This document shows positions 6,174 to 29,462 of a stretch of 45,618 bases of DNA, piece after piece. A model generated the notes under the pieces. That model was not told the origin of the DNA. It saw nothing but the letters and a program-made list of their open reading frames with translations, and searched no databases. Location: positions 1 to 45,618 of IMG/VR virus record IMGVR_UViG_3300047440_000231, one strand, 5' to 3'. A program made the position numbers and the translations under genes. Within the stretch, counting starts at the first letter, position 1. Each line of letters begins with the position of its first letter. This stretch comes from a virus.

Positions 6174-6353
6174 ATGGGCGATATCATCCCGTTCAAGCCG
6201 AGGCCAGGGCCGGAGCTGAACTACGGCTGCTCGCCAGCGATGCTCGTTCTGTCGGACCTCAAGACATGGAACGCTTTCCAGTTGGCCGAGCGCGCCGCGG
6301 CCATTCGCGAGATCATGGCGGACCCGCTCCCCAAAGATACGTTGCCGGCCTGA
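6174..6353 (+). CDS. Hypothetical protein (59 aa, below the ORF-track cutoff)
   Basis: ATG at 6174 follows SD AGGAGAGA. Translation MGDIIPFKPRPGPELNYGCSPAML...PKDTLPA; TGA at 6351-6353. Confidence 0.5.
   Translation: MGDIIPFKPRPGPELNYGCSPAMLVLSDLKTWNAFQLAERAAAIREIMADPLPKDTLPA
6337..6347 (+). promoter_or_regulatory. Conserved 11-mer ATACGTTGCCG, copy 1
   Basis: Exact 11-mer overlapping the last codons of 6174..6353. Followed by the hairpin GTGCCGC-N13-GCGGCAC (6376-6402). Confidence 0.5.
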
Positions 6354-6468
6354 CCCCTCCCGGCGCACCGTCAGCGTGCCGCATGACGCATCCACGCGGC
6401 ACACAACCCCACCTGGGCTGGGCCGGCGCGAAGAGGCAGCCGGCCCGCCCTCCTTTGACGGAGCCGAT

Positions 6469-6660
6469 ATGGCGCTGCCAAGCCTGACAGGTTCCGCCAC
6501 CGCCGACCTCGGCATGGGTGACATGTTGCAGAGCCAGGCGGCCGGCGAAACCGAGGAAATGCGCAAGAAGCGCATGGCCGAGATGCAGGCGCAGAAGATG
6601 ATGGGCGCCGCGGGCTCCCCGGCGGCGCAGATGCTGCTGGGTGGAGGGCCTGTCCGATGA
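6469..6660 (+). CDS. Hypothetical protein (63 aa)
   Basis: Internal Met of track ORF 6376..6660, with SD GACGGAG. ATGA overlap with the next gene. Confidence 0.5.
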   Translation: MALPSLTGSATADLGMGDMLQSQAAGETEEMRKKRMAEMQAQKMMGAAGSPAAQMLLGGGPVR

Positions 6661-7031
6661 TCGGACGTCGAGGCGTCATTCAGGGTGGAGCAGCAGTTGC
6701 CATAGCCGCAGCTACTGTTCAGATCAGCGATGCCCTTGCCGACAAATATGTGTGGTGGGAGTGCAGTCAGTTTTCTCGCGATCAATATCCGGATGACTGG
6801 CGACAGTGGCCGGAGGACAATCAAAAACTTGCGCGGCGTGTTGTCGAACGATGGCTGGCGCGCATCCCTGGCGCTAAGATTGTCGAGGATATCTCACTCT
6901 GCGTAGGGCCGGATCATCCGCGTTATCCTGACCAGTCGCTGCAGCCTGAGCATTTCAAGGGCGGTTTTCATCTGGTGCGGCAGGTCCGACTTGACCGAGC
7001 GATACCGGAATATGATGACCCCGGATACTGA
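6657..7031 (+). CDS. Small exported protein with twin-arginine-type signal
   Basis: N-terminus MIGRRGVIQGGAAVAIAAATVQISDALA. G+C looks lower than in neighbouring genes (by eye). Confidence 0.6.
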   Translation: MIGRRGVIQGGAAVAIAAATVQISDALADKYVWWECSQFSRDQYPDDWRQWPEDNQKLARRVVERWLARIPGAKIVEDISLCVGPDHPRYPDQSLQPEHFKGGFHLVRQVRLDRAIPEYDDPGY

Positions 7032-7500
7032 AGCCGCCCACGAGCTGATCCGCCACTCACGAGATCTCCGCGACATGTGGCAGGGCCGCGTGCTCGCACA
7101 CGCCAAGGGCAACAACCTCCTCGCCGTCACCTCGATGCTCGCACACGCGTTCGACGACGCGATGGGCATCATGCTGCGCGTGGTCAAGCCGAAGTGCTGG
7201 GACGTCGAGCGACAGAGCCTGCGCGCGCCGTTCCTGTGCTCGATCGCCAAGATCGATAAGCGATCTCATGTGGTCGCCGATGTGATCGATAACGACGGCA
7301 CCAAGCTCAAGGACGTCGTGGTCTATCGATCGACCGCGCATTTTCAGGGCGAGATGCGCCGCGTCGCCGATGTCGCGCGGCTCACCGACGGAGAGCGCCA
7401 CGAGTTCTTCATCGTCGCCAAGAGCTGGATCGCCGCCGATCGAAGGCTCGATCCCAACATGAACCCGGCGGACCCAGATGCCCGACGACTCGTCAATTAA
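7012..7500 (+). CDS. Hypothetical protein
   Basis: First ATG (Met8) of track ORF 6991..7500, whose listed start is a TTG. Confidence 0.6.
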   Translation: MMTPDTEAAHELIRHSRDLRDMWQGRVLAHAKGNNLLAVTSMLAHAFDDAMGIMLRVVKPKCWDVERQSLRAPFLCSIAKIDKRSHVVADVIDNDGTKLKDVVVYRSTAHFQGEMRRVADVARLTDGERHEFFIVAKSWIAADRRLDPNMNPADPDARRLVN

Positions 7501-7672
7501 GATCCCGCCCGGCCTCATGAAGGTCGAGGTCTTTGCCGACTCGATCGGCGTATGGCGGCGTGAGACATGGGACGTGACAGTCAAGTATTGTCCGCTCATC
7601 GTCTATGACGTTGCGACTATGACGAAGGACGAAAAGGCGTATCAGGTCGAGCGACTGGTCAGGATTTCCTGA
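7478..7672 (+). CDS. Hypothetical protein (64 aa)
   Basis: ORF track. Its stop overlaps the portal start (TGATG). Confidence 0.5.
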   Translation: MPDDSSIKIPPGLMKVEVFADSIGVWRRETWDVTVKYCPLIVYDVATMTKDEKAYQVERLVRIS

Positions 7673-9453
7673 TGGCCGAGCAACTCGCCGTCGACATGAA
7701 AATACCTGATGGCGGCGCGCTCCGCATGCCGGATACGCGCGAGACCGAGCTGGTCAATCAGTTGATCCGCGAGTTCTCGCAATACACCGTGTGGCGCAAC
7801 ACCACCGGGCTCCATTGTGAAGAGATCGCAGAGATCGCGCTGCCGACGTCACGTAACACGTTCTTCTACGGCAACTTCAACTGGCCGGGGCAAAAGAAGA
7901 CCCAGCAGCAGGTCGACGCCACCGCGGCGCTGGCGCTGCATCGGTTCTGCGCCATCGCCGACTCGCTGGTCACGCCGCGCAACTCGCCGTGGCATGGGCT
8001 CGAAGGCGACGACTACGTGATGAAAGACCGCGCCTCGCGGCTGTGGCTCGAGGACACGGTCAAGCTTCTGTTCAAGCAGCGCTATAAGTTCGAGGCTAAT
8101 TTCGCCGCGCAGAACTACAACAACTGGCAATCGCTCGGCGCGTTCGGCAACTCGACCATGTATATCGACAAGCTCGACACCCGCTGGCATCGCGGCACCC
8201 GCGGCCTGCGCTACAAGGCGATCCCGTTCGGCGAGACGTTCTATGGCGAGAACCACCAGGGCCGCGTCGACAAGATGTATCGCTGGTTCAAGCTCACCGC
8301 ACGGCAAGCCGTGCAGAAGTGGGGCTTGAGCAATCTGCCGGCCAACCTGCTCGCGCCGCTGATCTCCGAAAGCCAGTGGCCATACAACTTCCTGCACGTG
8401 GTCAAGCCGAGGAGCGACTACGATCCAGAGCGGCTCGACGTCAAGGCGCTGCCGTTCTGCTCGTACTATGTTTCGCTCGAAGGCCGCTGCCTGATGCCGT
8501 CGCCGGAGACCGGTCGCAAGGAAGGCGGCTATCGCGTCTTCCCGTTCGCGGTCTCGCGCTACGACCAGACGCCGAACGAGGTCTATGGCCGTGGCCCGGC
8601 GCATATCGTGTTGCCGGCGATGAAGACGCTCAATGCCGAGAAGGTCACGTTCTTGACGCAGGGACATCGCGCCGCATCGCCGGTGCTGCTCCTTGCCGAG
8701 GACGGCCTGATGGGCATGGACATGCGACCCGGCGCCAAGAACTACGGCGGCGTCACCTCGGACGGCAAGCTTCTCGTCCATACGCTACCGACCGGCGACA
8801 TCCAGATCAGCAAGGAGATGATGGCGCAGGAAGCCTCGATCATCGACGACGTCTTCCTGGTGTCGCTGTTCAAGGTGCTGACCGAGCATCCCGCGATGAC
8901 CGCGACCCAGGTGATCGAGCTGGTCAACGAGAAGGGCATGCTTGTCGCCCCGACGCTCGGCCGCCAGCACACCGAATATGTCGGCGGCATGGTGTGGCGC
9001 GAACTCGATCTGATGTCCGAGATGGGCATGCTCTCGCCGCCGCCGCCGCGGCTCGCCGAAGCGTTCCGCCAGCTCGGCCACGGCGCCTATGACGTGACCG
9101 ACACCTCGCCGCTCGCGCAGGCTGCCAAGGCCGGCAAGGCGGCCGGCTTCATGCGCTCGGTCGAGATGAGCCGCGAGATCGTCAACATCACGCAGGATCA
9201 GAGCTATCTCGATCCGTATGACTTCGACACCGCGACGCCCGAGATCGCCGCCATCAACGGCGTGCCGGAGCGCTGGATGGCCGATCCGCAGAAGATCGCA
9301 CAGAAGCGCCAGTCCCGCGCGCAGCAGATGGCCCGCCAGCAGGCCGCCCAAGAGGCGCCGGCCAAGGCCGCGATCATGAAGGCGCAGGCCGTGCAGGCCA
9401 AGTCCGGCCTGCCGACCCAGACGCAATTGCCGGCGATCCAGGGTGGCGCGTGA
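7672..9453 (+). CDS. Portal (head-to-tail connector, T7 gp8-like)
   Basis: 593 aa, positioned after the terminase. Has a VYGRGP motif (compare T7 gp8 SYGRSY) and a Gln/Ala-rich C-terminal tail. Confidence 0.8.
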   Translation: MAEQLAVDMKIPDGGALRMPDTRETELVNQLIREFSQYTVWRNTTGLHCEEIAEIALPTSRNTFFYGNFNWPGQKKTQQQVDATAALALHRFCAIADSLVTPRNSPWHGLEGDDYVMKDRASRLWLEDTVKLLFKQRYKFEANFAAQNYNNWQSLGAFGNSTMYIDKLDTRWHRGTRGLRYKAIPFGETFYGENHQGRVDKMYRWFKLTARQAVQKWGLSNLPANLLAPLISESQWPYNFLHVVKPRSDYDPERLDVKALPFCSYYVSLEGRCLMPSPETGRKEGGYRVFPFAVSRYDQTPNEVYGRGPAHIVLPAMKTLNAEKVTFLTQGHRAASPVLLLAEDGLMGMDMRPGAKNYGGVTSDGKLLVHTLPTGDIQISKEMMAQEASIIDDVFLVSLFKVLTEHPAMTATQVIELVNEKGMLVAPTLGRQHTEYVGGMVWRELDLMSEMGMLSPPPPRLAEAFRQLGHGAYDVTDTSPLAQAAKAGKAAGFMRSVEMSREIVNITQDQSYLDPYDFDTATPEIAAINGVPERWMADPQKIAQKRQSRAQQMARQQAAQEAPAKAAIMKAQAVQAKSGLPTQTQLPAIQGGA

Positions 9454-9725
9454 CCCCCGACGAGGCGCTGAAATATCAGTCTGAGAAGAAGGTCGCGTTC
9501 CAACTCGCATTCGGCGGCGCGCACGGCAAGGCGGTGCTCGCCGACCTCGCGCCGTTCTGCCGGGCCAAGGAACCCTGCGGCGTGCCTGGCGACCATGACA
9601 AGACCTGGGGCCTGATCGGCCGCAATGAGGTCTGGCTGCGGATCAATCAGTACCTCGAGCTGACGCCGGAACAGCTCGTGGCGATCAACACCCGGCAGAT
9701 CGAGACCACAGGAGACACTATATAA
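9450..9725 (+). CDS. Conserved phage protein (possibly Bbp19-like, from memory only)
   Basis: GTG start in a GTGA overlap with the portal stop. Motif GKAVLADLAPFCRAKEPCGVPGD. Confidence 0.5.
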   Translation: MTPDEALKYQSEKKVAFQLAFGGAHGKAVLADLAPFCRAKEPCGVPGDHDKTWGLIGRNEVWLRINQYLELTPEQLVAINTRQIETTGDTI

Positions 9726-10573
9726 TGTCTGACGTAGCAGCGGCTGCCGCCACCACGGCGACAACAGCCGCGACGACCGCAGCAGCCACAACGGCGGCCC
9801 CATGGCATGCCGGCGTCGAGCCCGAGATGCTTGGCCACTGGCAGAACAAGGGCTGGAAGACAGAAGACCCCAAGGAGATCGCGCTGGCCGCGACCAAGCA
9901 GGCCCGCGAGCTGGAGCGCCACTTCGGCGTCCCGGCCGATCAGCTTCTGCGGATGCCGAAGGCCGACGCCAAGCCGGAAGACTGGAAGGCATTCCACCAG
10001 CGCCTCGGCGCCCCGGCCGATCCCAAGGAATACGACCTCTCCGGCATCAAGTACGCGGGCGAGGATCTCGAACCCGCCTTCGTCGACTCGATGCGCGCCG
10101 CGCTCCACGCCGTCGGGGTTCCAAAGGACAAGGCCGCCGCGCTCATCGCTCCGGTGGTCTCGTACCTTGAGAACGCCGACAAGGCCGAGGCGACCGTCAC
10201 CGCCGGCAAGATCGCTGCCGAGAAGGCCGAGCTTGCCAAGGATTGGGGCGAGAAGTTCCAGTACAACCACCTCAAGGCCATGGAGGGCGCCGCCCGCCTC
10301 GGGATAACCCCAGAGGCGATCAAGGCGCTCGAAGGCCAGGTCGGCTACAAGGCCGTCATGGAGTCGATGCGCCGGGTCGGCGTCGGCACCACCGAAGACT
10401 CGTTCGTCGAGGGTTCCGCACCTGGCGGCCCCGGCGTCACCACCGCGACCGGCGCGCAGGCCCGCATGGCCGAGCTGATCGCCGACACTGCATGGGGCAA
10501 GCGCTTCACCGCAGGCGACGCCACAGCCAAAGCCGAGTGGGAAGCCCTCACCCGCATGATGTCACCGGAATAG
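9725..10573 (+). CDS. Scaffolding protein (positional call)
   Basis: Lies between portal and capsid. Ala/Glu/Lys-rich and helical-looking, with an N-terminal Ala/Thr low-complexity run. Confidence 0.55.
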   Translation: MSDVAAAAATTATTAATTAAATTAAPWHAGVEPEMLGHWQNKGWKTEDPKEIALAATKQARELERHFGVPADQLLRMPKADAKPEDWKAFHQRLGAPADPKEYDLSGIKYAGEDLEPAFVDSMRAALHAVGVPKDKAAALIAPVVSYLENADKAEATVTAGKIAAEKAELAKDWGEKFQYNHLKAMEGAARLGITPEAIKALEGQVGYKAVMESMRRVGVGTTEDSFVEGSAPGGPGVTTATGAQARMAELIADTAWGKRFTAGDATAKAEWEALTRMMSPE

Positions 10574-10585
10574 GAGCCATATATA

Positions 10586-10909: not shown

Positions 10910-10918
10910 GAGGCGTCG

Positions 10919-11062
10919 ATGCCGTTGGACAAGTCGGGAAGCAAGAAGTCGGTCGGCAAGAACATCAAGGCCGAGATGAAGGCCGGCCGGCCGCAGAAAC
11001 AGGCAATCGCCATCGCGCTCAGCGTCCAGCGCCGCGCCGGGCGACACGTCAAGAAGAAGTAA
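10919..11062 (+). CDS. Small basic protein (47 aa, below the ORF-track cutoff)
   Basis: Strong SD AGGAGG 6 nt upstream. MPLDKSGSKKSVGKNIKAEMKAGRPQKQAIAIALSVQRRAGRHVKKK; the KQAIAIALS motif recurs in a widespread small-protein family (from memory). Confidence 0.55.
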   Translation: MPLDKSGSKKSVGKNIKAEMKAGRPQKQAIAIALSVQRRAGRHVKKK

Positions 11063-11072
11063 TACGTTGCCG
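11062..11072 (+). promoter_or_regulatory. Conserved 11-mer ATACGTTGCCG, copy 2
   Basis: Begins on the last base of the TAA at 11060-11062 and opens the 195-nt leader of the capsid gene. Confidence 0.5.
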
Positions 11073-11075
11073 AGG

Positions 11076-11108
11076 CCGAGGTGCCGGAACAGTCTCGTGG
11101 CACCTCGG
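11076..11108 (+). promoter_or_regulatory. Stem-loop in the capsid leader
   Basis: Perfect 10-bp stem CCGAGGTGCC-N13-GGCACCTCGG, 4 nt after motif copy 2. Confidence 0.5.
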
Positions 11109-11257: not shown

Positions 11258-12196
11258 ATGTCGGAAAATCTGCCCAAACTGTTCACCACGCAATTCTCCA
11301 CCGTGCTCATGGTCAAGCTGCAGCAGCGCCAGTCGAAGCTGCGCGGCCGTGTGCAGGAAGGCTTTCACGTCGGCAAGCAGGCGTCGCCGATCCAATACAT
11401 CGGCGCGATCCAGATGAAGCCGCCGGCCGGGCGCTATGCACCGATCGGCCGCCAGGACGTCGACTTCTCCCGGCGCTGGGTGTTCCCGGTCGACAAGGAC
11501 GCGAACCAGCTCATCGACACCTTCGATAAGCTCAAGACCGCGCTGGAGCCGACGTCGCAGTATTCCGATGTCGCCGCCGCCGCCGTCGCTCGCGAGTGGG
11601 ATGACCGCATCATCCAGTCGGCATTCGCGACCGCGCAGATCGGCACCGATGCCGGCTCGCTCGCTACCGAGACGTTCAACACCGGATCGACGGTGACGAG
11701 CGCGGGTTTCCAGATACCGTCGAACTTCAATGCTTCGGCCGCAGTCGGCGTCACGGTCTCGAAGATGATCGAGGCCAAGCGCGCGTTCCGCAAGCTGCAG
11801 GTCGACATGGATACCGAGTCATTCACCTGGATCACCAACAGCCAGGGCGAGAGCGATCTGCTCAATCAGGTGCAAGTCGTGTCGACCGAGTTTTCCGGCC
11901 AGTCGCGGCTGGAGGAGGGCAAGGTCACCCGCTTCCTCGGCTTCGACATCATCTACTCCGAGCGCCTGCAACAGTCGTCAGCCAACGTGCGGATGAACAT
12001 CCCGCTGGTGAAGTCCGGCGCCTATCTCGGCATCTGGAAGGACACCGAGAACGACGTCGACCGCCGCAAGGATCTCTCCGGCCTGCCGTACCAGATATAC
12101 ACCATGATGTCGTGCGGCGCGACGCGCCTCGAACCGGGCCGGCTCCTGCAGGTGCTGTGCGCCGACACATCGGCTGCGGCCGACGTGACCCCGTAA
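11258..12196 (+). CDS. Major capsid protein
   Basis: Start at Met60 of track ORF 11081..12196 (SD GGGAG). 312 aa, positioned after the scaffold, with composition typical of HK97-fold coat proteins. Confidence 0.8.
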   Translation: MSENLPKLFTTQFSTVLMVKLQQRQSKLRGRVQEGFHVGKQASPIQYIGAIQMKPPAGRYAPIGRQDVDFSRRWVFPVDKDANQLIDTFDKLKTALEPTSQYSDVAAAAVAREWDDRIIQSAFATAQIGTDAGSLATETFNTGSTVTSAGFQIPSNFNASAAVGVTVSKMIEAKRAFRKLQVDMDTESFTWITNSQGESDLLNQVQVVSTEFSGQSRLEEGKVTRFLGFDIIYSERLQQSSANVRMNIPLVKSGAYLGIWKDTENDVDRRKDLSGLPYQIYTMMSCGATRLEPGRLLQVLCADTSAAADVTP

Positions 12197-12209
12197 AGGA
12201 GCAAGCACT

Positions 12210-12743: not shown

Positions 12744-12751
12744 GGTGAACG

Positions 12752-12970: not shown

Positions 12971-12978
12971 GGGGAGCC

Positions 12979-14198: not shown

Positions 14199-14246
14199 TA
14201 CGATGATAGCGATACAGATCATCATCATCGGCCTATGAGGCGCACC

Positions 14247-14348
14247 ATGAGTGCAGCAATCCAGCTCATCATCTTCGGCGGAACAAGCTCTGCATCCGGC
14301 TCGACCACGCCGACGACGCCGAGCGAACCAATCCCGGTCGTTCTCTAA
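14247..14348 (+). CDS. Possible micro-ORF (33 aa)
   Basis: MSAAIQLIIFGGTSSASGSTTPTTPSEPIPVVL, with a weak GAGG SD. Uncertain. Confidence 0.25.
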   Translation: MSAAIQLIIFGGTSSASGSTTPTTPSEPIPVVL

Positions 14349-14359
14349 CGGAGGCTTGA

Positions 14360-17495: not shown

Positions 17496-17518
17496 CGGAA
17501 CATCGGCAAATCCAGGGG

Positions 17519-17528
17519 TACGTTGCCG
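17519..17528 (+). promoter_or_regulatory. Conserved motif, copy 3 (GTACGTTGCCG; 10 of 11 bases)
   Basis: TACGTTGCCG lies 24 nt after the stop at 17495 and 30 nt before the ATG at 17558. Confidence 0.45.
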
Positions 17529-17557
17529 CCGCGGAACCTCGCTGAAAAGGTGCCAGA

Positions 17558-21451: not shown

Positions 21452-21934
21452 ATGGCAAGCGCTGACACATTCTCGGCAGCCTCCGGCGCGGTCAACGACC
21501 TGTTTGCGGGTTTTGCGGCCGGTTACAAGCAGAAGGGCGCTCTGATCGAGGAGGGCATGTATCGGTCGGCCGCCGGCTTTGCGCGCCAGAACGAGGAGTT
21601 CACCAAGGCATCGACCGACATCAAGCTCGCTCAGCAGGAGCGATCGAACTATCTCACGCTCGGTGGGCAGCAGGCGGACGTCGCTGGTGCCGGCTTTGCC
21701 GAGAGCGGATCGGCGCTCGACCTGTTGCGGGATAGCGCGAGCCAGGGCGCATTGACCAAGCAGGTCATGGGCTATCAGGGCCTGATTACCGAGGCCGGCT
21801 ATGAGCAGCAGGCGGCATCGTTCGATGCGCAGGCGAATGCCGCGAGCGTTGCGGCGAAGGCGGCCGGCGTTGCCCAGATCGGCGATTTCGTTTCGTCAGC
21901 GATCAAGGGCGTCACCGCGATAGCGACGCTATAG
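21452..21934 (+). CDS. Internal virion protein (gp14-like by position)
   Basis: 160 aa, Ala/Gly/Gln-rich, first of three genes after the nozzle gene. Confidence 0.5.
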   Translation: MASADTFSAASGAVNDLFAGFAAGYKQKGALIEEGMYRSAAGFARQNEEFTKASTDIKLAQQERSNYLTLGGQQADVAGAGFAESGSALDLLRDSASQGALTKQVMGYQGLITEAGYEQQAASFDAQANAASVAAKAAGVAQIGDFVSSAIKGVTAIATL

Positions 21935-21942
21935 GGATCACC

Positions 21943-23601
21943 ATGGTCATCCGCACGATTGACGCGCCCGCCCTCGGCTTTCAGCCGACCGAGACCGGCA
22001 TCGAATCGACTGCGCAGGGCGCTCGGCGGGTCGGCGCATTCTACAGCCAGACCGCAGAGGATTTCACCAATACCGGATCGCGGATTGCCGGCGCGGTGCG
22101 CGAGGCCGGCGACGTCTACGTCAAGCATCTCGACCACGAGCAGATCAGCGAGGGCGCCAAGGACTTCGCACAGCGCCAGCTCGACCTCACGCAGAAGTGG
22201 ACAGACATCGCCAAGGACCCGGCCGCGGCGAATGATCCTGCGGTGGCGCAGAAGTTTCGCGACGAGGTGCTTGAGCCATCGCTCGATGCGTTCAAGGGTA
22301 AGTTCACCACCCAGCGCGCGCAACAGTGGGCCGAGGAGCATGCCGACGCGCTGCGCAACCACATGTTCCAGAAGACGGCGGCGGATCAGTCGACGCTTGC
22401 GGGTGAGGCGGTCAAGACCAACATCGCCAAGGTCGCCAATTCGTCGGCTGCCACTGCGCGGCTCGATCCGTCATCACTCGACTTCCAGCTACAGACGGTT
22501 GAGAGCGCGCTCAAGGGCGTGGTCGAGTCGAGCCCGACGCTTAATGCCGAACAGGTAGCGAGGGTTTCCGGCGAGGTGCTGCAGAAGGCCAAGGAGGGCG
22601 TCGTCAAGTCGGCCGTGATCGGGATGATCGAAAAGAACCCGAACGTCGACCTGTCGAAGATCGAAAAGAAGTACAGCGACTTCATCTCGGGACCCGAGAT
22701 GCAGATGTTCCAGAAGGCCGCGCAGGTCCAGGCGCGCAAGGATGCCTTGCTGGAACGCCAGACACAATTGATCGCCAAGCAGCAGGCCGAGCTGAAAGCT
22801 CACGCCGACGCGAACAGGAATTTCTCCGACAACGTGACGATCGATCCACAAACTCATCGTCCGATCATCAAGCCGGAGTTCTTCAACGGCGCGCTCGACA
22901 TCGCCAAGAACAACCCCGACGCGCCGAACGCGCAGACCACCGCGCGCACGCAGCTTGATTGGGGCGAGCACCAGCAGAACCTCAAGGATGAGTCGCCGCG
23001 CACCGATCCTGCGGTCAAGCAGGACTTCGTCGATCGCATGTTCTCGACGGATCATCCGACCACCGAGATCGAGTTGATGCGGGCGAACGTCAATGGCCAG
23101 CTCAACCACAACGACTTCAACGCCATGCATCAGATGGTCAAGACGCTCGAGCAGGAGCCGCTCAAGGGGCCGATCTGGCACGACACCATGGAGGCAGTGA
23201 AGGCCGACCTGATGGTGAGCGGTATCAACCTGCCGGGCAAGGACGTCGCAGGGATCAAAAACTACGCTTCGTTTGCGCAGACTTTCGTTCAGCAGTACCT
23301 CGCCGCCGCACGCCAGCCGGGTGGAGTTCCGCCGAATGCGCTCGACCTCAAAGACCCGCAATCGATGATCTCGAAGGCGATGGCGCCGTTCAAGCGCACC
23401 GTTGCGCAGAAGATGCAGGACTACATGGCCGGCATCGGGGGCGCGCCTGGCGCGCCCGGCAACCTCACGGCGCCCGGCACAACGATCACCGGCGTCAAGG
23501 TCGAGAACCAGCCGGCGGTGCGCACCAAGGCTGAATACGACAAGCTGCCCTCCGGCTCGTCGTTCATCGATCAGAACGGCAAGACGTGGAGGAAGCCGTA
23601 A
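21943..23601 (+). CDS. Internal virion protein (gp15-like by position)
   Basis: 552 aa, helical-looking, second of the three genes. Confidence 0.5.
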   Translation: MVIRTIDAPALGFQPTETGIESTAQGARRVGAFYSQTAEDFTNTGSRIAGAVREAGDVYVKHLDHEQISEGAKDFAQRQLDLTQKWTDIAKDPAAANDPAVAQKFRDEVLEPSLDAFKGKFTTQRAQQWAEEHADALRNHMFQKTAADQSTLAGEAVKTNIAKVANSSAATARLDPSSLDFQLQTVESALKGVVESSPTLNAEQVARVSGEVLQKAKEGVVKSAVIGMIEKNPNVDLSKIEKKYSDFISGPEMQMFQKAAQVQARKDALLERQTQLIAKQQAELKAHADANRNFSDNVTIDPQTHRPIIKPEFFNGALDIAKNNPDAPNAQTTARTQLDWGEHQQNLKDESPRTDPAVKQDFVDRMFSTDHPTTEIELMRANVNGQLNHNDFNAMHQMVKTLEQEPLKGPIWHDTMEAVKADLMVSGINLPGKDVAGIKNYASFAQTFVQQYLAAARQPGGVPPNALDLKDPQSMISKAMAPFKRTVAQKMQDYMAGIGGAPGAPGNLTAPGTTITGVKVENQPAVRTKAEYDKLPSGSSFIDQNGKTWRKP

Positions 23602-26600
23602 TGGCCGGCCCGGAGGATTGGGGGGCGGTTGCAGCGGGCGAGCAGGATCAGGGTCCCGCGGCTTGGGGCGCGCAGCCGGCCGACGCGCCGCCACGCGCCG
23701 TCTCGGGACCGAGTTCTGCCATGGGTGGCGGCCTGCCGATCAGTGCGCAGCTCGCGCCCTACTTCGCGCCAGTGCTCAAGGCATTCGGCCAGGGCTTCCA
23801 AGAGGGTTTCGGGCCGGATCGCCTGAACCGCTACGGGCTCTCCGACGAGTCGGTCAAGTGGCTGTCGGATCACAAGATTTTTGGTGGCAAGGACGGCTTC
23901 GACAACCCGCTGCAGGCCGGAGCCGAGCTGCTGCTCAACGACATCGCGCTCGGCCCACTGCATGGCATCGACCAGTTGGCGCGCGGCATGTCGGGGATGT
24001 TCCGAGGCGCCCAGGCCGCGGTCGCGGAGACTGGCGAGCAGGTCGGCCAGCCGCTGCTCGGCCGCGAGCTTGCCGCGCTGCCCGAGGCATTCATGGGCAC
24101 GCCGCATCCGATGGGCATACCGAAGGCATTCCCGGTGCCTGAGGGGGCGGTTGCGAGCGAGGGTGCAGTCGCTGCCGCGGCGCATGCGAGCGAGCCTGTG
24201 GTCGGGGCGCCGCCGCTGGTGGCCCAGGCTGCCGACCTTGGGGTGATCGGCGAGCCCAAGCCAGTGATCGCGGACCTGCCGCCTGCAGAGGCCGCAGATG
24301 CCACAATCCCGCGCACCATGGCTGCCGAGCAGAAACCGGGCGAATCGATCAGCGAGCCTGCCGGCCCCGCCAACCCATGGCGCGATCGGTTCGAGCAGTT
24401 CGTCGGCAAGCTCGAGGCGCCGGGCGACGTCCAGCAGCTCATTCGTGAGGCGGCCGACCAGAACGGGGAGTTCCAGGCGGCGCGGCAGGGCGACATTCCG
24501 CTCTCCCACGTCGAGAGCATCGCGGAGGCGGCGGGCGTCAACCCGGAGGAGATCAACGCCAAGGGGCTCGGTCGGCTACTGCGCAATGATGGCGAGGTGC
24601 GGACCGCGATGCAGTTGATGCTGCAGGTCACCGACAACCTCAAGGCGGCCGCTCGAGAGGTCAAGGCCGACGGCTCGCCGGAGAGCCTGATCAAGCTGCA
24701 GGAAGCCGTGATGCGGCGCGATCTCGCGGTCGAGCAGGTCGTGGGCCTGCGCGCCGAATGGGGCCGGACCGGCAACGTGTTCCAGGAGTTCTTGCGCGAC
24801 GTGAAAGACCAGGAGGGGCTGACGGCCTTCCTCAAGGACAAGAAGGGCCGCACGCCAGGAGACCTCAAGGATCTCGCCGATGCGATCGACACCATGGACC
24901 CGGCGCAGACCGCGCGCTTCATGAACGATGCCCGGACGCCGACGTTCTGGGACAAGTTCATGTGGTATTGGGTTAATGCCCTGATCTCTGGGCCGGTGAC
25001 CCATGCCAAGTATGCCATCGCCAATGCGGGGTTTGGCGCCTACGAGGCCGCGGTGGTCACTCCGGTGGCCGCAGGGCTCGGCGCAGTGCGGCGTGGGCTT
25101 CTCGGCGGCCGGGAAGGGGTGTTCATTGGCGAGGCGCCAGCGCGGCTCTGGGGGCTCGTGGCGGGCACGCCTGACGCGCTGGTCGCTGCCGCCAAGGCCG
25201 CACGCACGGGGCTGCAAACCCCGCTGCCGGGCGAGGTGGCGCAAGGCATCCTGCCGTCGCAGAACAAGGGCCTGCCGTTCCAGCAGAAGCCGATCGGCGG
25301 GGTGGCCGGAACGGTGATCGGCATACCGTCGCGGGGCGCGGCCGGCATCCACAGCTTCTACAACTTCCTCGGCTACCGGGCATCGATGGAGGCGCAGGCA
25401 TACCGCACTGCGGCAAAGGAGGGGCTATCGGGCCAGGACTTCTGGGAGCGGCGCCAAGCGCTGATCGACCAGCCAACCAAGGAGATGATGGATGCCGGCA
25501 TCGAGGAAGGCTACCGGCTGACCTACATTTCCGAGCTTGGTCCGGCCGGCAAGAAAATCTCGGCCGCCCTCAAGGCGACCAAGGTCGGCCAGCTCCTGAT
25601 GCCGTTCACCCACATCCCGTTCAACATCCTGTCGCGGGCAGTCGAGAACACTCCGCTGTTCCCGCTCTCCTCGGAAGCGCGCGGGGATCTGTCGGGCGCG
25701 AACGGCATCGTCAAGCGCGACATGGCGACCGCCCGCATCGTCGCCGGGACCGCCGTCGGCATGTGGGCGATGAACCTGGTGCTCAATGACCGCATGACCG
25801 GGTTTGGACCTACCGACCCAAAGGAACGCGCTCAGTGGCTCGCGCTCGGCCACCAGCCCTATTCGATCCGCATCGGCGACCAGTGGCTCTCGGTCAATCG
25901 ATTCGGCTCGATCGGCACCATGCTCGGCATCTACGCCAACCTGTCCGAGATCATGCCACACATGCAGGCCGATTCGGAGGAGCTGACCAAGGGCCTCGCG
26001 CTCGCGGTCCACTCCACCGGCCGGCTGCTCGAGGACGAGACCGGCATGCAGGGCCTCGCCAACATCATGCAGGCGATCGACGAGCCCGATCGCAAGGGCG
26101 CGCGCGTGGTCGGAAACATCGCCGGGAGCTTCCTGCCGTTCAGTTCTGCCCTGCGGCAAATTGCCTCATCCATGGACCCGGAGATGCGCGAGACCAAAAC
26201 CGTGGTCGATGGCCTGCGCTACTACATCCCGTCGGTACGTCAGGGTCTCTTACCCAAACGCGACTGGACCGGCATGCCGATCGCCAATGCGGGTTACGGC
26301 GGCGACCTGCCGGTGCCGGGCGTGTCTTCGATCATTCAGCACCGCGCGGTCGGCACAGATCCCGTGGCGCTCGAGATGAAGACGCTTGACCTGCATCCGG
26401 CTCTACCGGTGCCACGCATCGGCGGCGTGCAGCTCCCGCCAAAGCTTGCCGACGAGTATTTCTCGACCGCCGGCCCGATGACGCACGTCGCACTCGACCG
26501 CATGGTGGCGCAACCCGGCTGGGAAAACCTGCCGCTATTCGTGCGCCAGCAGGCATTCGAGTCGACCATCAAGGCCATGCGCCAGTCGGCCGGCGCCATC

Positions 26601-26693
26601 ATGCAGGCCCGTCATCCCGAGATCATGCAACAAGGTGTGGACAACCGCGTCAACCGCATCGAGGGCGTCAAGCCAACCAAGCTCAAGGATTGA
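23601..26693 (+). CDS. Large internal virion/ejection protein (gp16-like by position)
   Basis: 1030 aa from the ATG at 23601 (SD GGAGGAA; TAATG overlap). No lytic transglycosylase motif recognised. Confidence 0.55.
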   Translation: MAGPEDWGAVAAGEQDQGPAAWGAQPADAPPRAVSGPSSAMGGGLPISAQLAPYFAPVLKAFGQGFQEGFGPDRLNRYGLSDESVKWLSDHKIFGGKDGFDNPLQAGAELLLNDIALGPLHGIDQLARGMSGMFRGAQAAVAETGEQVGQPLLGRELAALPEAFMGTPHPMGIPKAFPVPEGAVASEGAVAAAAHASEPVVGAPPLVAQAADLGVIGEPKPVIADLPPAEAADATIPRTMAAEQKPGESISEPAGPANPWRDRFEQFVGKLEAPGDVQQLIREAADQNGEFQAARQGDIPLSHVESIAEAAGVNPEEINAKGLGRLLRNDGEVRTAMQLMLQVTDNLKAAAREVKADGSPESLIKLQEAVMRRDLAVEQVVGLRAEWGRTGNVFQEFLRDVKDQEGLTAFLKDKKGRTPGDLKDLADAIDTMDPAQTARFMNDARTPTFWDKFMWYWVNALISGPVTHAKYAIANAGFGAYEAAVVTPVAAGLGAVRRGLLGGREGVFIGEAPARLWGLVAGTPDALVAAAKAARTGLQTPLPGEVAQGILPSQNKGLPFQQKPIGGVAGTVIGIPSRGAAGIHSFYNFLGYRASMEAQAYRTAAKEGLSGQDFWERRQALIDQPTKEMMDAGIEEGYRLTYISELGPAGKKISAALKATKVGQLLMPFTHIPFNILSRAVENTPLFPLSSEARGDLSGANGIVKRDMATARIVAGTAVGMWAMNLVLNDRMTGFGPTDPKERAQWLALGHQPYSIRIGDQWLSVNRFGSIGTMLGIYANLSEIMPHMQADSEELTKGLALAVHSTGRLLEDETGMQGLANIMQAIDEPDRKGARVVGNIAGSFLPFSSALRQIASSMDPEMRETKTVVDGLRYYIPSVRQGLLPKRDWTGMPIANAGYGGDLPVPGVSSIIQHRAVGTDPVALEMKTLDLHPALPVPRIGGVQLPPKLADEYFSTAGPMTHVALDRMVAQPGWENLPLFVRQQAFESTIKAMRQSAGAIMQARHPEIMQQGVDNRVNRIEGVKPTKLKD

Positions 26694-26697
26694 ACAA

Positions 26698-26904
26698 ATG
26701 TCAGAACTCGAAGCCGCGATACTGAAAATTCACCAAATCCTCGGCCCGCTACGCTGCGAAGAATTTCGCACGCCGGAGAAAATCATTGCGGTCGCCGCAG
26801 CAGTCGGCGAAGCCGATGCCGTCGCCTTGCAAGCACTCGCCGATGCAGGACTGATGCGCAGGATCTCGATTTCAGACGTTGGGCCGGCCAAGCTCAATGG
26901 TTGA
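26698..26904 (+). CDS. Hypothetical protein (68 aa)
   Basis: Internal Met (MSELEAAILK) of track ORF 26635..26904. Confidence 0.55.
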   Translation: MSELEAAILKIHQILGPLRCEEFRTPEKIIAVAAAVGEADAVALQALADAGLMRRISISDVGPAKLNG

Positions 26905-26905
26905 G

Positions 26906-26916
26906 ATACGTTGCCG
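26906..26916 (+). promoter_or_regulatory. Conserved 11-mer ATACGTTGCCG, copy 4
   Basis: Starts 2 nt after the TGA at 26902-26904 and opens a 510-nt non-coding region. Confidence 0.5.
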
Positions 26917-26967
26917 TGCGCGGCGGTGGCGCGCGTATTGAGCAAGTTCGGCAGGGCTGCGGGTGCC

Positions 26968-26981
26968 AGGACTATAGTCCT
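26968..26981. repeat. Perfect 14-bp palindrome AGGACTATAGTCCT
   Basis: Read directly. Nested inside a GGGTG...CACCC pairing. The half-site AGGACT recurs at 27057-27062. Confidence 0.6.
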
Positions 26982-27375
26982 ACTGAGTGCCCACCCTGTC
27001 GTGAAAATAGGTGCGCCGGCCACGTGCGACCGTGCCGGCGCTGATTGGGATGAGCTAGGACTTAAATCCCAACCGATTACGATAGGCATATAATCCTATC
27101 AGATCGTCCTGCCAAGCGCTTCCTAGCTGTCGCACGGGCCCGGCCGGCCACCGGGGATGACGCGCAGGAACTCACCGATCCGGCGGACGCGAGTCGACGC
27201 TTACGCCAAGAACTGAGCCACAATATACGGCATTGTAGCCTCTGCACCGGCGATGTAGATGCAGGCCGGCCGTCTGGCCCACGACACGGGTAGCTCAGGG
27301 ATATGCGCTAGAAGGTTCGGCGGCTCATCCGCATGGCTCTCTGTAGCCGGCCTTTGCGGTGGCGGTCCTATGCTC

Positions 27376-27386
27376 ATACGTTGCCG
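27376..27386 (+). promoter_or_regulatory. Conserved 11-mer ATACGTTGCCG, copy 5
   Basis: Lies 29 nt upstream of the ATG at 27415 and is followed by the tandem GATAGGGATAGGG (27401-27413). Confidence 0.5.
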
Positions 27387-27414
27387 GAGACCCTCCCCCC
27401 GATAGGGATAGGGC

Positions 27415-27972
27415 ATGGCAACCCCTCCGGTCGGTCAGAGCTGCCTTACGTGCAAGGCGCTGTTCCACGGCGGCTGCCATCGCGGGCCACCCCGGCAAGG
27501 CCATGGCGAGGTATCCCGCTGGCGGCCGGTGGCTGACACCGACTGGTGCCCAGGATGGGCTCCGGGGGTGAAGGACGTCACCGAGACCTGCAACAATTGC
27601 CCCCTGTGGATAATTGCGACCTGCCGGGCCAATCTGCCGGCGCAGACCACGGGCGACATCTCGCTCTGGCCGCCGACCGACCATGACGAATGGTGCATGG
27701 CCTGGGGCTTCATCGTCACCACGCCGCCGATCATTACCAAGGGCACATTCACCCTCGACGCGGCGGCCTCCACCGTCATCGTCGAGCCAAAGATCGCGCC
27801 GTTCTCACACATATCGCTCACGGCGATCAATTTTGGTGCGGCGGTGCTGCAGGGTTCGGCTGCTGGCATCTTCCCCAACACGCTCGTGATCGGTGTCGGG
27901 TTCACGGTGACGACCGGCAACAGCACGCCGGCTACCGGCAGCGAATCCTACATGTACGAAATCTTCAACTAG
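27415..27972 (+). CDS. Hypothetical protein with Cys-rich N-terminus (possible tail/fibre accessory)
   Basis: ORF track. CLTC...C...C..CNNC cluster followed by a beta-rich C-terminal half. Sits upstream of the tailspike. Confidence 0.6.
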   Translation: MATPPVGQSCLTCKALFHGGCHRGPPRQGHGEVSRWRPVADTDWCPGWAPGVKDVTETCNNCPLWIIATCRANLPAQTTGDISLWPPTDHDEWCMAWGFIVTTPPIITKGTFTLDAAASTVIVEPKIAPFSHISLTAINFGAAVLQGSAAGIFPNTLVIGVGFTVTTGNSTPATGSESYMYEIFN

Positions 27973-27982
27973 GAACGCCCTC

Positions 27983-29452
27983 ATGACCCGCATTCTCGCC
28001 GGCATCCTGCTCATCCTTTCCAGCGTCGCATCGGCCCAGCCGTTCCCGCAGACTATGCCGCCCGATTCCGTGGTCGGCCGCCTCGGACCGCCGACATCAG
28101 GGCCAGGCTCCGCGGTCACGATGGCGAGCCTGCAGGCGCGGCTGCTGGCCGGCGAGCGGCCGGTAGCGGATGCCAACTTCCTGATGGTCGCGACCGATCG
28201 GGTCATCGCCTACACGTCGATCTCGGCGGCGCGCACCGTGACGCTGCCATCTGCATCGCTGATCGCGGCCGGCACCCGCATCATGATCTTCGATCGCTCC
28301 GGCAGCGTGTCCGCGGTCAACACGATTTCGGTGGCGCCCTCCGGCGCGGATACGCTCAATGGCGCAGGCACGCCGCTGGTCGCCGTCCAGTCACCGCGCG
28401 GCATGGTCGAGGTCGAGACCGATGGCATCTCGAAATGGACGGCCTTGCAGCTCGGCGGCAGCGTCAGCTCGGTCTCCAACTCGGATGGATCGCTGACGGT
28501 CGCCCCGACAACCGGCGCCGTCGTCGGATCGATCAATCTCGGCCATGCGAACACGTGGACGGCTGTCCAGCAGTTCAACGCCGCCACCTATTTTCAGAGT
28601 GGCTCGCCATGGGCCGACGTCAAGGCATTCGGCGCACTCGGCAACAACTCGAACGATGACACCACCGCGATCCGCAATGCGATCACGCAGGTCGGCACCA
28701 CGGGCGGGGTCGTGAATTTCCCGCCCGGCGCCTACAAGATCACCGGCACGCTGACGATACCGAGCGGCGTCATTCTCCGCGGCATCAACATCACGGCGAC
28801 GTCGATCTTCGCGACCTCGGCCGATTTCACCGCGATTGCATACACCGCCAACGATAGCGGGTCCGGCCTTGAGCGCTTGAGCGTGTTCTGCATTCAGAGC
28901 CTCACGGCGACGACCCCGTGCGTCACGATCGGCGCGAATGCCTTCATCAACATGCACGACTTCCGCATCTGGGGCGGGCTGCATGGCATCCAGACTGCCG
29001 GCGCCGACGGCTATTACGAGAATGGCTATGTCTGTGGCTGGGCCACCGCGGGATACTGCATCTCGTCGACGGGCGCGAACTGGTACAGCCGCATGAAGCT
29101 CGACGGCATCAATGGCGGATCGAGTGCCGGCGCGTTTATCCAGGGCACGGTTGCGGCGCTTGCCGAGAACCACTTCTCGCTGACGGATTTCTCGGGATCG
29201 TTCACCAACAGCATCGTGATCACCGATGCCAACAGCCTTTCATTGACCGTGATCCAGGGCAGCGTTTTCTCCTCGCCGATCCTGATCGGTCAATCGAAGG
29301 CAACGATTCTGACCGGCAACGAAATCGGCAGCACCTCACTAGCCGCGAGCGGCGGGCCACTCATCATGGCCGGCAACTACGCTTTTAGCGCCACGACCGC
29401 CAGCGGGACGTCGGTGCGGACATGCGCGGGGAACGCCAACGTCACGTGCTGA
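27983..29452 (+). CDS. Tailspike/tail fibre with pectate-lyase-3-like beta-helix and N-terminal signal-like segment
   Basis: N-terminus MTRILAGILLILSSVASA|QP. VKAFGALGNNSNDDTTAIRNAI..GGVVNFPPGAYKITGTL is a Pectate_lyase_3 signature. PPDSVVGRLG is a fibre-type N-terminal motif. Confidence 0.7.
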   Translation: MTRILAGILLILSSVASAQPFPQTMPPDSVVGRLGPPTSGPGSAVTMASLQARLLAGERPVADANFLMVATDRVIAYTSISAARTVTLPSASLIAAGTRIMIFDRSGSVSAVNTISVAPSGADTLNGAGTPLVAVQSPRGMVEVETDGISKWTALQLGGSVSSVSNSDGSLTVAPTTGAVVGSINLGHANTWTAVQQFNAATYFQSGSPWADVKAFGALGNNSNDDTTAIRNAITQVGTTGGVVNFPPGAYKITGTLTIPSGVILRGINITATSIFATSADFTAIAYTANDSGSGLERLSVFCIQSLTATTPCVTIGANAFINMHDFRIWGGLHGIQTAGADGYYENGYVCGWATAGYCISSTGANWYSRMKLDGINGGSSAGAFIQGTVAALAENHFSLTDFSGSFTNSIVITDANSLSLTVIQGSVFSSPILIGQSKATILTGNEIGSTSLAASGGPLIMAGNYAFSATTASGTSVRTCAGNANVTC

Positions 29453-29462
29453 TACGTTGCCG
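29452..29462 (+). promoter_or_regulatory. Conserved 11-mer ATACGTTGCCG, copy 6
   Basis: Begins on the last base of the TGA at 29450-29452, upstream of the lysis cassette. Confidence 0.5.

Follow-up and report, generated by a model that had tools for sequence, protein, structure and literature searches.

A repeated box at the late gene junctions of an uncultivated podovirus, a probable late promoter with an extended -35 element

Copies of the box in the late region

We examined a window of 45,618 nucleotides (positions 1 to 45,618 of the IMG/VR virus record IMGVR_UViG_3300047440_000231), whose structural module is T7-like, with a portal, gp11/gp12-like proteins and internal virion proteins. 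The 11-mer ATACGTTGCCG was present in five exact copies (6337, 11062, 26906, 27376 and 29452), all on the plus strand, against 0.03 expected, and five copies were reached in 0/100 shuffled sequences. With up to one mismatch, the window scan recovered seven matches against 0.75 expected, the additional ones being GTACGTTGCCG at 17518 on the plus strand and ACACGTTGCCG at 24770 on the minus strand. An earlier note on this DNA had described the 11-mer as a repeat found on the plus strand only, which holds for the five exact copies and for GTACGTTGCCG; in the mismatch scan that the note had proposed, run here with up to one mismatch, the sole minus-strand match was the one at 24770, which lies within the gp16-like gene and is compatible with a chance match. 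The 8-mer core RTRYGTTG occurred seven times on both strands of the window (8.6 expected) and six of the seven were box sites; thus, the core is depleted outside the sites.

Two degenerate relatives that had been reported near 44360 and 33155 both exist. At 44361, ATACGTTTAGG lacks both the TTG and an in-register -10 hexamer and is thus probably no box site, and GCATGTTGCCGTGCGCG at 33153, with three mismatches to the 11-mer and TATCTT 16 bp further on, may be a weak seventh copy of the box.

The genes found 3' of the boxes (Table 1) were small head genes and the portal, the major capsid gene, the gp11/gp12-like tail tube genes with the internal virion proteins, the fibre/spike genes and the lysis cassette, in agreement with the capsid, gp11-like, fibre and lysis identities given before. 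The copies at 11062, 26906 and 29452 lie at or next to upstream stop codons, as the earlier note had also claimed, and the copy at 6337 sits in the final five codons of its small ORF. No ORF follows the box at 26906, which heads a 470-nt non-coding stretch; Rfam covariance models gave no match over the whole window at gathering score and none at E up to 1 in 26890-27430. In the lysis cassette, the ATG at 29491 opens a 25-aa membrane peptide (MRAFWIAAAIALALYWLAYLYLNTA; ORF to 29568) without a Shine-Dalgarno sequence, and an endolysin-like ORF (29578-30138) comes next.

Table 1. Box copies, associated elements and the candidate factor gene in the window
Feature	Positions	Strand	Description
c3, candidate trans-acting factor	1821-2378	+	XRE/HipB-like HTH, residues ~10-90; long basic C-terminal helices
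Box copy 1	6337-6347	+	Junction b, after terL and small ORF 6174-6353; -35 TTGCCG at 6342-6347
-10-like CACCGT	6366-6371	+	18-bp spacer; predicted start ~6378, at foot of hairpin 6376-6402
GC hairpin GTGCCGC..GCGGCAC	6376-6402	+	Predicted 5' end of junction-b transcript
Box copy 2	11062-11072	+	Junction c; on TAA of ORF 10919-11062; 196 nt 5' of major capsid ATG 11258
Hairpin CCGAGGTGCC..GGCACCTCGG	11076-11108	+	13-nt loop, holding -10-like CAGTCT
-10-like CAGTCT	11090-11095	+	In loop of hairpin 11076-11108; predicted start ~11102
Box copy 3, variant GTACGTTGCCG	17518-17528	+	Junction d, 5' of gp11-like tail gene
-10-like AAAGGT	17546-17551	+	17-bp spacer; predicted start 17558, A of gp11-like ATG
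Box copy 4	26906-26916	+	Junction e; 1 nt past TGA 26902-26904; weak -10 (CGTATT or TATTGA)
Box copy 5	27376-27386	+	Junction f; 5' of ORF 27415-27972 and fibre/spike gene 27983-29452
TAGGGA	27403-27408	+	16-bp spacer; predicted start at ATG 27415
Box copy 6	29452-29462	+	Junction g; on TGA of fibre gene; heads lysis cassette
-10-like CATGCT	29479-29484	+	16-bp spacer; predicted start 29491, A of ATG

A sister box in related phages

Exact ATACGTTGCCG was found in none of ~200 related contigs. The earlier note had held that absence of the motif from the junctions of relatives would speak against it; this absence is true for the literal 11-mer only, since the relatives have GTGCGTTG, a sister box, at these junctions (281 unique copies, nearly all on the gene strand). 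Copies on the gene strand numbered 154, against 10-16 expected, and those on the opposite strand 10. The sister box was detected before terS, after terL and before the capsid gene, the gp11-like gene and the fibre region; in particular, 60 relatives had it 183-320 nt 5' of the capsid gene and ~45 had it before the gp11-like gene, while the copy immediately 3' of terL is syntenic with the window copy at 6337. In two relatives (L076 and L087) the box preceded fibre-region ORFs, the ATG lying at +40 or +41, and in L087 two boxes separated by 420 nt occur in synteny with the junction at 26906. The minus-strand copies in relatives face minus-strand genes, with an ATG at ~+42 to +46 on that strand. 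The box was not found in the 8 kb of upstream early genes, which form polycistronic regions, and begins right after the c3 gene. An integrated prophage (L279), which includes an integrase, has the box at four late junctions, and we infer that its late promoters must be silent without an induced factor.

Box variants were uniform within each genome: the window has ATACG, L018 and L027 have GTACG, L190 has GTGTG and most relatives have GTGCG. GTGCG was found alongside capsid proteins with as much as 86% identity (up to 95% in partial matches), whereas the window has ATACG. Judged by sequence comparison, ATACGTTGCCG is this phage's own version of a box common to hundreds of uncultivated soil podoviruses.

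Two-part architecture, start codon spacing and hairpins

All six window copies end in TTGCCG (the -35 hexamer), followed by 16-18 bp and then by an xAxxxT hexamer (-10), which was recognised at four of the six sites (CACCGT, CAGTCT, AAAGGT and CATGCT); the site at 27376 has TAGGGA and the one at 26906 is weak. Among 132 unique sites in relatives, TTG was invariant and the -35 consensus was TTGCTG (TTGCYG), and the position matrix had a further block spanning +29 to +36 (A30 in 87 and T34 in 84 of the 132 sites). A30 and T34 were combined in 51% of the 281 unique relatives' sites, compared with 3.8% of random positions. A scan with the E. coli sigma-70 consensus (at least 9 of 12 matches) called 0 of the 6 window sites; this would be consistent with activator dependence or with a non-E. 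coli consensus.

The start codons followed the same geometry. An ATG, often lacking a Shine-Dalgarno sequence, was present at +40 to +43 in 47% of the 281 unique sites of relatives against a background of 6.3%; the histogram of ATG offsets had a sharp peak at these positions, and almost every such ATG begins an ORF of 40 codons or more. In the window, the seventh nucleotide past the hexamer end is exactly the first of an ATG at 17558, 27415 and 29491. Internal genes of the window have AGGAG-type Shine-Dalgarno sequences, whereas the promoter-proximal ATGs at 29491 and 4196 have none; in box-less distant relatives a Shine-Dalgarno sequence precedes the same gp11-like gene. Leaderless mRNAs are therefore predicted at 17558 and 29491, where the fit is clean, and probably at 27415.

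Three sites are the weak points of a promoter reading. The box at 26906 has no good -10. TAGGGA at 27403-27408 is ambiguous between a -10 and a Shine-Dalgarno sequence, resembling the Shine-Dalgarno-like sequence before gene 21943. At 6337, the CACCGT hexamer is identical in relative L001, and the GTG at 6376 (+40 of the box), which is ATC in relatives, is probably not a leaderless start; the conserved portion of the downstream ORF starts later.

The GC hairpins that the earlier note had placed at 6376-6402 and 11076-11108 are present. The first one, for which conservation was not seen in relatives, may act as a 5' stabiliser. Capsid sites of relatives often have a GC stem around a 6-nt CAnnTT loop; the stem sequence varies by phage, with compensatory changes between phages. 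Stems of 6 bp or more occurred at 29 of the 132 sites (10.5 expected), and hairpins were frequent only at the capsid junction.

A probable late promoter

We consider it likely that the box belongs to a late promoter used by a host holoenzyme of the sigma-70 family, with a lineage-specific extended -35 box and probably dependent on a phage activator. TTGCCG, the last six bases of ATACGTTGCCG, would serve as the -35 and the first five (ATACG; GTGCG in most relatives) as the lineage-specific extension, while the weak -10 would retain only the two bases that sigma-70-family factors need most (xAxxxT). Transcription would start ~7 nt past the -10 hexamer. At 17558, 29491 and probably 27415, the predicted start would then coincide with the first base of the start codon, so that these operons would begin leaderless; the promoters at 6337 and 11062 would be followed by a 5' UTR. 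Of the blocks into which the six boxes would partition the late region, the first would hold the small head genes with the portal and scaffold, and the next ones the capsid gene, the tail tube with the internal proteins, a non-coding RNA, the fibre and the lysis genes. A phage-encoded protein would read the extension for the host holoenzyme, in the manner of a class II activator or of a sigma-appropriation factor. Such a factor is suggested by the weak -10, by a box that is near-invariant within a genome (8-11 nt) yet variable between lineages, and by the scattered copies of temperate relatives, which would have to be silent.

The earlier note had offered a late promoter, an activator site or an RNA-processing signal. 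The promoter or activator part is favoured by the variant box at the junctions of relatives, the -10-like hexamer at a fixed distance, the orientation in the direction of the genes and the restriction to late genes; RNA processing is disfavoured, because the A/T pair and the leaderless ATG geometry would be predicted by a -10 and a start site and not by cleavage. The note's remark that no phage RNA polymerase is encoded agrees with our PHROGs and Pfam scan of the large ORFs, which detected none (the largest ORFs were gp12-like and gp16-like).

That an alternative sigma factor of the host (RpoH-like sigma-32 or another group 3/4 factor) reads the promoter by itself, with no phage factor and with box variants that reflect different hosts, appears unlikely. 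The layout also fits the sigma-32 type (TTG, ~14 bp, a C/G-rich run and CAT-n-T), and the RpoH and RpoD motifs of S. meliloti are hard to distinguish (PMC3616915), but conservation does not extend to the CCCC of the sigma-32 -10 (only GC-richness is seen at positions 26-28), T34 (-7) is more conserved than T33 and the -35 is TTGCYG, not TTGAAA. No early gene is common to all box-bearing phages, their early modules being mosaic, and c3 diverges independently of the box variants; however, an invariant 8-nt box that shifts in concert per phage lineage, as seen with the capsids above, fits a phage-borne reader more easily.

We give little credence to a signal that acts at the RNA level within one long late message, whether a site of endonuclease processing or an element for 3'/5' stability, with the hairpins as its structural part. 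The copies do lie exactly at stop codons or intercistronic junctions, and no canonical terminators were found between the late genes; however, cleavage at the box would leave ~30-nt leaders without Shine-Dalgarno sequences before many ATGs and would not explain why an A and a T are conserved 4 nt from each other and 7 nt 5' of the ATG, and the polycistronic early regions have no box. The two window hairpins and the compensatory stem changes at capsid junctions would suit such a signal, but hairpins are frequent at that junction only.

A strand-specific DNA site, such as a localised nick site (phages tf, phiKMV and T5), a primase site or a packaging signal, is highly improbable: the box is a short asymmetric consensus on one strand of the window, depleted elsewhere, which superficially resembles the nick consensus of tf, TACT/RTGMC (14 sites, all on the top strand; PMC3517423), and an HNH endonuclease gene lies at 3387-3920, but nicking requires neither a -10-like hexamer nor an ATG at constant spacing, opposite-strand copies in relatives face genes of that strand, the sites are strictly intergenic and only in the late region, and box-bearing relatives do not conserve the HNH gene.

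The candidate factor c3

The candidate reader c3 was present in 23 of 24 box-bearing loci and in 0 of 8 box-less ones, always just 5' of the first box. By sequence, c3 was assigned to no Pfam or PDB family, and sequence-profile searches gave weak matches only. The AF2 model, from an 81-sequence alignment, had pLDDT >90 over residues ~10-90, and Foldseek aligned it with HipB (4yg1_A; TMt 0.83, rmsd 2.2 A), with the five-helix HTH fold present. Box variants do not track c3, since one and the same box, GTGCGTTG, goes with c3 proteins only 25-40% identical, L190 (GTGTG) has a c3 that resembles those of GTGCG phages, and the c3 proteins nearest to the window's (L275 and L279) go with GTGCG. The co-occurrence of c3 and box may merely reflect shared ancestry. 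XRE-type HTH proteins are usually dimers on palindromes, and the box is asymmetric, unlike those palindromes. By position and co-occurrence, c3 is the best candidate activator for the box, with a putative link.

Comparison with known systems

Activator boxes that overlap or replace the -35 are known from T4 middle promoters (MotA box plus sigma-70 -10), from lambda pRE, pI and paQ with CII, and from the controller C proteins of restriction-modification systems. The late promoters proposed here would resemble these activator-dependent phage promoters in the conserved asymmetric box at -35, the weak -10 with -11A and -7T, the use of a host sigma-70-family polymerase without a phage RNA polymerase, and the control of a temporal gene class; the modelled c3 would share the XRE-type HTH fold of C proteins and cI/Cro-type regulators. 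The T4 MotA box is centred at -30, whereas the window box would span ~-41 to -31, reaching upstream from a TTG that occupies the canonical -35 position. A lambda CII-type promoter was rejected, as neither the TTGC-N6-TTGC repeat nor conservation at +16 to +19 was found; no MotA, AsiA or CII homologues were seen among the ORFs scanned.

The box is also like T7-group promoters in being a phage-specific repeat before late blocks, depleted elsewhere and with lineage-specific variants, next to a T7-like structural module. However, a T7-type promoter is a continuous ~20-bp block spanning the start, whereas here 8-11 nt are conserved together with a separate -10-like block, and a promoter of a T7-type single-subunit RNA polymerase was rejected, as no cognate polymerase gene was found. 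The virion RNA polymerase of phage N4 uses hairpin promoters, and the capsid junction is similar in holding its key element in the loop of a GC hairpin whose stem varies while complementarity is kept. Unlike N4, the loop of 6 nt (13 nt in the window) would be a sigma-70-type -10, no N4-like polymerase was found and the hairpin is present in one promoter class only.

The lambda cI message from PRM is a phage leaderless mRNA. In S. meliloti (Hyphomicrobiales), 171 leaderless AUG-initiated mRNAs have been documented, and the mapped leaderless starts were all AUG (PMC3616915). The messages predicted here would share with the leaderless mRNAs of Alphaproteobacteria and phages an ATG ~7 nt past the -10, the lack of a Shine-Dalgarno sequence and the use of AUG only. 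Compared with those known cases, a single promoter type would here give leaderless starts to a whole group of late operons across the family, namely those of terS, tail tube, fibre and lysis.

The box and its copies in the window

The 11-mer ATACGTTGCCG, hereafter the box and the proposed upstream half of a late promoter, was found in five exact copies, all on the plus strand, where 0.03 would be expected. The earlier note had described a repeated 11-mer confined to that strand, and this description stands, as does its account of the copy positions at stop codons, the downstream genes and two of the hairpins. Allowing one mismatch added the plus-strand copy at 17518 and the intragenic ACACGTTGCCG at 24770 (-), against a total expectation of 0.75. 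The 8-mer core RTRYGTTG occurs seven times on both strands (8.6 expected) and six of the seven occurrences are the sites, so the core is depleted everywhere else in the window. The box is a real feature, well above chance. A position matrix built from the relatives' sites missed the window's own variant and gave no extra convincing copies in the window. A degenerate copy with a good -10 was also seen at 33153, where the late region ends. It faces the converging early operon of the minus strand and may be either a seventh promoter, a weak one, or a promoter of antisense transcripts.

Features of the window and of related loci, with predicted promoter elements and starts
Feature	Position (strand)	-10-like element	Predicted start	Remarks
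Box	6337 (+)	CACCGT, 6366-6371	~6378	Foot of hairpin 6376-6402
Box	11062 (+)	CAGTCT, 11090-11095	~11102	-10-like element in loop of hairpin 11076-11108; ~155-nt 5' UTR to capsid ATG
Box, GTACGTTGCCG	17518 (+)	AAAGGT	17558	Start is the gp11-like ATG
Box	26906 (+)	weak	~26946	No ORF
Box	27376 (+)	TAGGGA	27415	ATG; ambiguous, TAGGGA also Shine-Dalgarno-like
Box	29452 (+)	CATGCT	29491	Start is the ATG of the first lysis-cassette peptide
Degenerate copy, GCATGTTGCCGTGCGCG	33153-33185 (+)	TATCTT, 33180-33185		16 bp between copy and -10
terS upstream element	4162-4198 (+)			TTGCAT-N18-TAACGG-N6-ATG
c3	1821-2378 (+)			XRE/HipB-like HTH protein
Small ORF	1525-1782 (-)			~40 bp from c3, divergent
terS	4196-4747
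terL	4725-6164
Portal	7672-9453
Scaffold-like gene	9725-10573
Major capsid	11258-12196
Low-GC segment	~14200-17500			ORFs 14911-15954 and 15870-17495
gp11-like	17558-18862
gp12-like	18866-21448
Internal virion proteins	21452-26693
Stretch between boxes	26917-27375			470 nt
Fibre or spike	27983-29452
Lysis cassette, first gene	29491			25-aa membrane peptide
Lysis cassette, endolysin-like ORF	29578-30138
DnaA-type HTH protein	41819-42670 (-)			283 aa
GcrA-like protein	43827-44045 (+)			72 aa
Terminal overlap	1-127 = 45492-45618			127 nt, exact
Divergent box pair, locus L137	792 (-)/856 (+)
Divergent box pair, locus L142	1083 (-)/1147 (+)
Divergent box pair, locus L143	4613 (-)/4678 (+)
Divergent box pair, locus L179	8581 (-)/8645 (+)
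Segment between two boxes, locus L087	19142-19555
Prophage L279	3169-20525

The box in related phages

Anchored on the capsid, gp12-like and terL proteins, our comparison drew about 200 related loci from IMG/VR, from JGI metagenomes and from a single genome collection. The primase/helicase, when used as an anchor for the relatives' early regions, led to unrelated phages, as the modules are mosaic, and the terS alignment was too divergent to serve for locus search. The literal 11-mer ATACGTTGCCG was found at a junction in none of these loci; they have a sister box, GTGCGTTG, at the junctions that the box occupies in the window. Among the first 71 loci, the gene strand had 154 occurrences of GTGCGTTG, where 10-16 would be expected, and the opposite strand had 10. 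In particular, the relatives' copies lie directly after terL, 183-320 nt upstream of the capsid gene and immediately ahead of the gp11-like gene. Beyond the internal virion genes, L087 has two copies ~420 nt apart and L076 has one, with a fibre-region ORF next; a further copy before terS is absent from the window. The box is essentially absent from early genes in loci reaching 10 kb upstream of terL, and begins 0.5-2 kb before terL.

Variant boxes were uniform within each genome, namely GTACGTTG in two loci (L018 and L027) and GTGTGTTG in another (L190). ATACG occurs 16 times in the relatives, never with a -10 in register, and a metagenome scan found no ATACG-variant relative. Since ATACGTTG was present at functional-looking sites only in the window, the window motif is a private variant of the family-wide box RTRYGTTG. 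Other-strand copies have their own ATG at ~+42 to +46 on that strand (positions counted from the box start), so orientation follows the gene and not the genome. Some copies form back-to-back divergent pairs ~64 nt apart, and in all four tabulated pairs the minus-strand member has downstream an ATG of its own that looks leaderless.

Proposed promoter architecture and predicted leaderless starts

With 132 unique sites of the relatives aligned by their boxes, a second conserved block emerged at +29 to +36, with A30 in 87 and T34 in 84 of the sites, together with C29, C35 and C36, and no conservation upstream of the box. The TTG at +6 to +8 and this second block can be read as a -35 hexamer (TTGCYG) and, 17 bp further on, a -10 (xAxxxT) that keeps the -11A and -7T. 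A30 and T34 occurred together in 51% of 281 unique sites, compared with 3.8% of random positions, while an ATG stood at +40 to +43 in 47% (6.3% at random); the histogram of ATG offsets peaks sharply at this distance, and real ORFs begin with these ATGs. Promoter-proximal start codons are without a Shine-Dalgarno, whereas internal genes of the window have AGGAG-like sequences; in distant box-less relatives a Shine-Dalgarno precedes the gp11-like gene. The simplest reading is a sigma-70-family promoter whose transcripts would start on the A of the AUG. In S. meliloti, a member of Hyphomicrobiales, 171 leaderless AUG-only transcripts are documented (PMC3616915). The GTG at +40 of box 6337 is not conserved (ATC in the relatives), so we do not call the message from that box leaderless.

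The earlier note had proposed a late promoter or activator site, with RNA processing as the alternative. The promoter reading is the one favoured by the two-part architecture, the ATG spacing, the shared junctions and the restriction to the late region, while a processing site would leave leaders without a Shine-Dalgarno and the A30/T34 pair unaccounted for, and we rejected it. A tf-type nick site (consensus TACT/RTGMC; PMC3517423) would leave the -10/ATG geometry and the gene-following orientation unexplained. An ECF/EcfG promoter (GGAAC-N16-17-CGTT) could borrow the CGTT of the box; GGAAC was found upstream of two copies only, at 19-20 nt. A sigma-54 (-24/-12) reading of TTGC fails for want of a GG 10-12 nt upstream, CII-type repeats are absent, and T7-type and N4-type promoters are without their polymerases; as the earlier note had stated, no phage RNA polymerase gene was found, here among the large window ORFs scanned. 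Judged by sequence comparison, the feature is most probably a late promoter, of a type that is familiar in general but belongs here to a phage group not yet studied. Its three more unusual traits would be leaderless late operons, a private concerted box variant in this genome and a -10 in the hairpin loop of the capsid promoter.

The window terS has no box. Its upstream element is without a Shine-Dalgarno and looks leaderless as well. In relatives a similar element, GTTGCATTTATGCCAC, precedes the terS box. This points to tandem promoters in the relatives, of which the window would have lost the box copy.

Hairpins and the stretch between two boxes

Folding across all sites was only slightly better than in shuffles. 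On either side of the -10, perfect stems of 6 bp or more numbered 29 (10.5 expected) and were concentrated at capsid junctions; the excess being modest and mostly there, we rejected the idea that all sites share the hairpin. The capsid-junction hairpin typically has an 8-9-bp GC stem and a 6-nt CAnnTT loop, and the stems differ among phages yet remain complementary (for instance GGGTGCGG/CCGCACCC, GGGCGCGG/CCGCGCCC, GGGCCGGG/CCCGGCCC). In strict register the paired fraction was 0.52, compared with 0.44 in shuffles (maximum 0.49). At the window capsid site a 10-bp stem encloses a 13-nt loop containing the hexamer. The capsid hairpin could expose the -10 as a cruciform, form the 3' end of the upstream transcript or act as its insulator, or offer a site for binding.

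No convincing ORF lies in the stretch between boxes 26906 and 27376. Positions 27005-27075 are 77-85% identical to a segment between two boxes of L087, and two hairpins there show compensatory changes between window and L087 (GCGCCGGCCACG..CGTGCCGGCGC vs GAGCCGGCCACG..CGTGCCGGCTC; TTGGG..CCCAA vs TTGGGG..CCCCAA). Rfam and tRNA scans gave no match, and a pattern search for the conserved hairpins returned a single contig, one that was already known. On these two examples, the stretch may encode a promoter-driven structured non-coding RNA.

Candidate readers of the box

A standard promoter scan with the E. coli consensus called none of the six window sites. The box is much more invariant than an ordinary -35 and changes in concert within lineages, and the predicted late promoters of the prophage L279 must be kept silent in the integrated state. 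Together these points lead us to infer that the phage encodes a positive factor.

The best candidate reader, though less likely than not to be the true one, is c3. Clustering of ORFs upstream of terL placed c3 in 23 of 24 box-bearing loci and in none of eight box-less loci. Its gene is always just upstream of the first box, and in some loci the two overlap in the final codons of c3; lambda Q holds the same position relative to its late promoter. By sequence c3 had no Pfam, PHROG or PDB match, and its more than 250 homologues are all labelled 'hypothetical'. An AF2 model from 81 sequences gave a confident five-helix HTH, with HipB, XRE and C-protein folds found by Foldseek (TM ~0.83); an earlier model from 3 sequences was unusable (pLDDT 49.6). 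However, the c3 sequence diverges widely while the box stays constant, shows no evident covariation with the box variants, and the co-occurrence could be phylogenetic. The c3 gene and its divergent small ORF resemble a regulatory switch, and GTGCGTTT lies near the c3 gene at 1782 on the minus strand.

The 72-aa GcrA-like protein matches the C-terminal part of Pfam GcrA (PF07750, E 1e-6), without the DNA-binding domain, and had no GcrA match in a phmmer search of PDB. The matched part overlaps the sigma-70-interacting domain, GcrA residues 108-173 (PMC5887438), and the protein could be a sigma-70-binding modulator. It has no close IMG/VR relatives, and a motif search returned similar small ORFs in only three box-bearing relatives (L141, L165 and L169), so it cannot be the general factor. 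The DnaA-type HTH protein (domain IV; PF08299, E 3e-15) adjoins RecT and is probably a replication initiator; it would be another monomeric reader of asymmetric sites, but it is not conserved in the relatives.

It is conceivable, although we think it improbable, that c3, with its basic helical tail, represents an unrecognised late-activator family that would work beside sigma region 4 or replace it, directing the host holoenzyme to leaderless late operons, while an extruded GC hairpin would present the capsid -10 in its loop. The capsid promoter would then be a structure-assisted sigma-70 promoter; its -10 in the loop recalls the N4 hairpin promoters, but here the host enzyme would use it.

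The phage group

The window contig is circular (unit 45,491 bp; GC content 61.9%) and belongs to a podovirus with a T7-like structural module. The primase/helicase gene spans the contig junction, and the minus strand carries RecT, a DNA methyltransferase and the DnaA-type HTH protein. Megablast of the region against GenBank phages gave no nucleotide-level match. The best protein matches, an uncultured Caudoviricetes record and Ralstonia phages, reach only 34-46% identity, so there is no annotated promoter to borrow. One relative is located within a Hyphomicrobiales MAG. L279 is integrated in a 3.3-Mb contig, with its integrase beside host asd and phaC, and carries GTGCGTTG at four late junctions (terS, post-terL, capsid and tail); the family thus has temperate members. 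The window ORFs that were scanned showed no integrase.

The six predicted late promoters and their starts provide a ready transcription map for a large, wholly uncultivated group of soil podoviruses and prophages, with Hyphomicrobiales as probable hosts, which have T7-like structural genes yet no phage polymerase and may express whole late operons from leaderless messages. The concerted variants GTGCG, GTACG, ATACG and GTGTG are a natural series on the co-evolution of promoter and reader, and they also indicate a candidate activator family without present annotation. In metagenomic phage contigs of this group, the two-part pattern could help to locate late regions and the starts of genes.

Finally, the two ORFs of the low-GC segment (52-56%, compared with ~63%) had no PHROG match and no counterpart in any relative; the segment, which separates the head-completion genes from the tail promoter, looks inserted.
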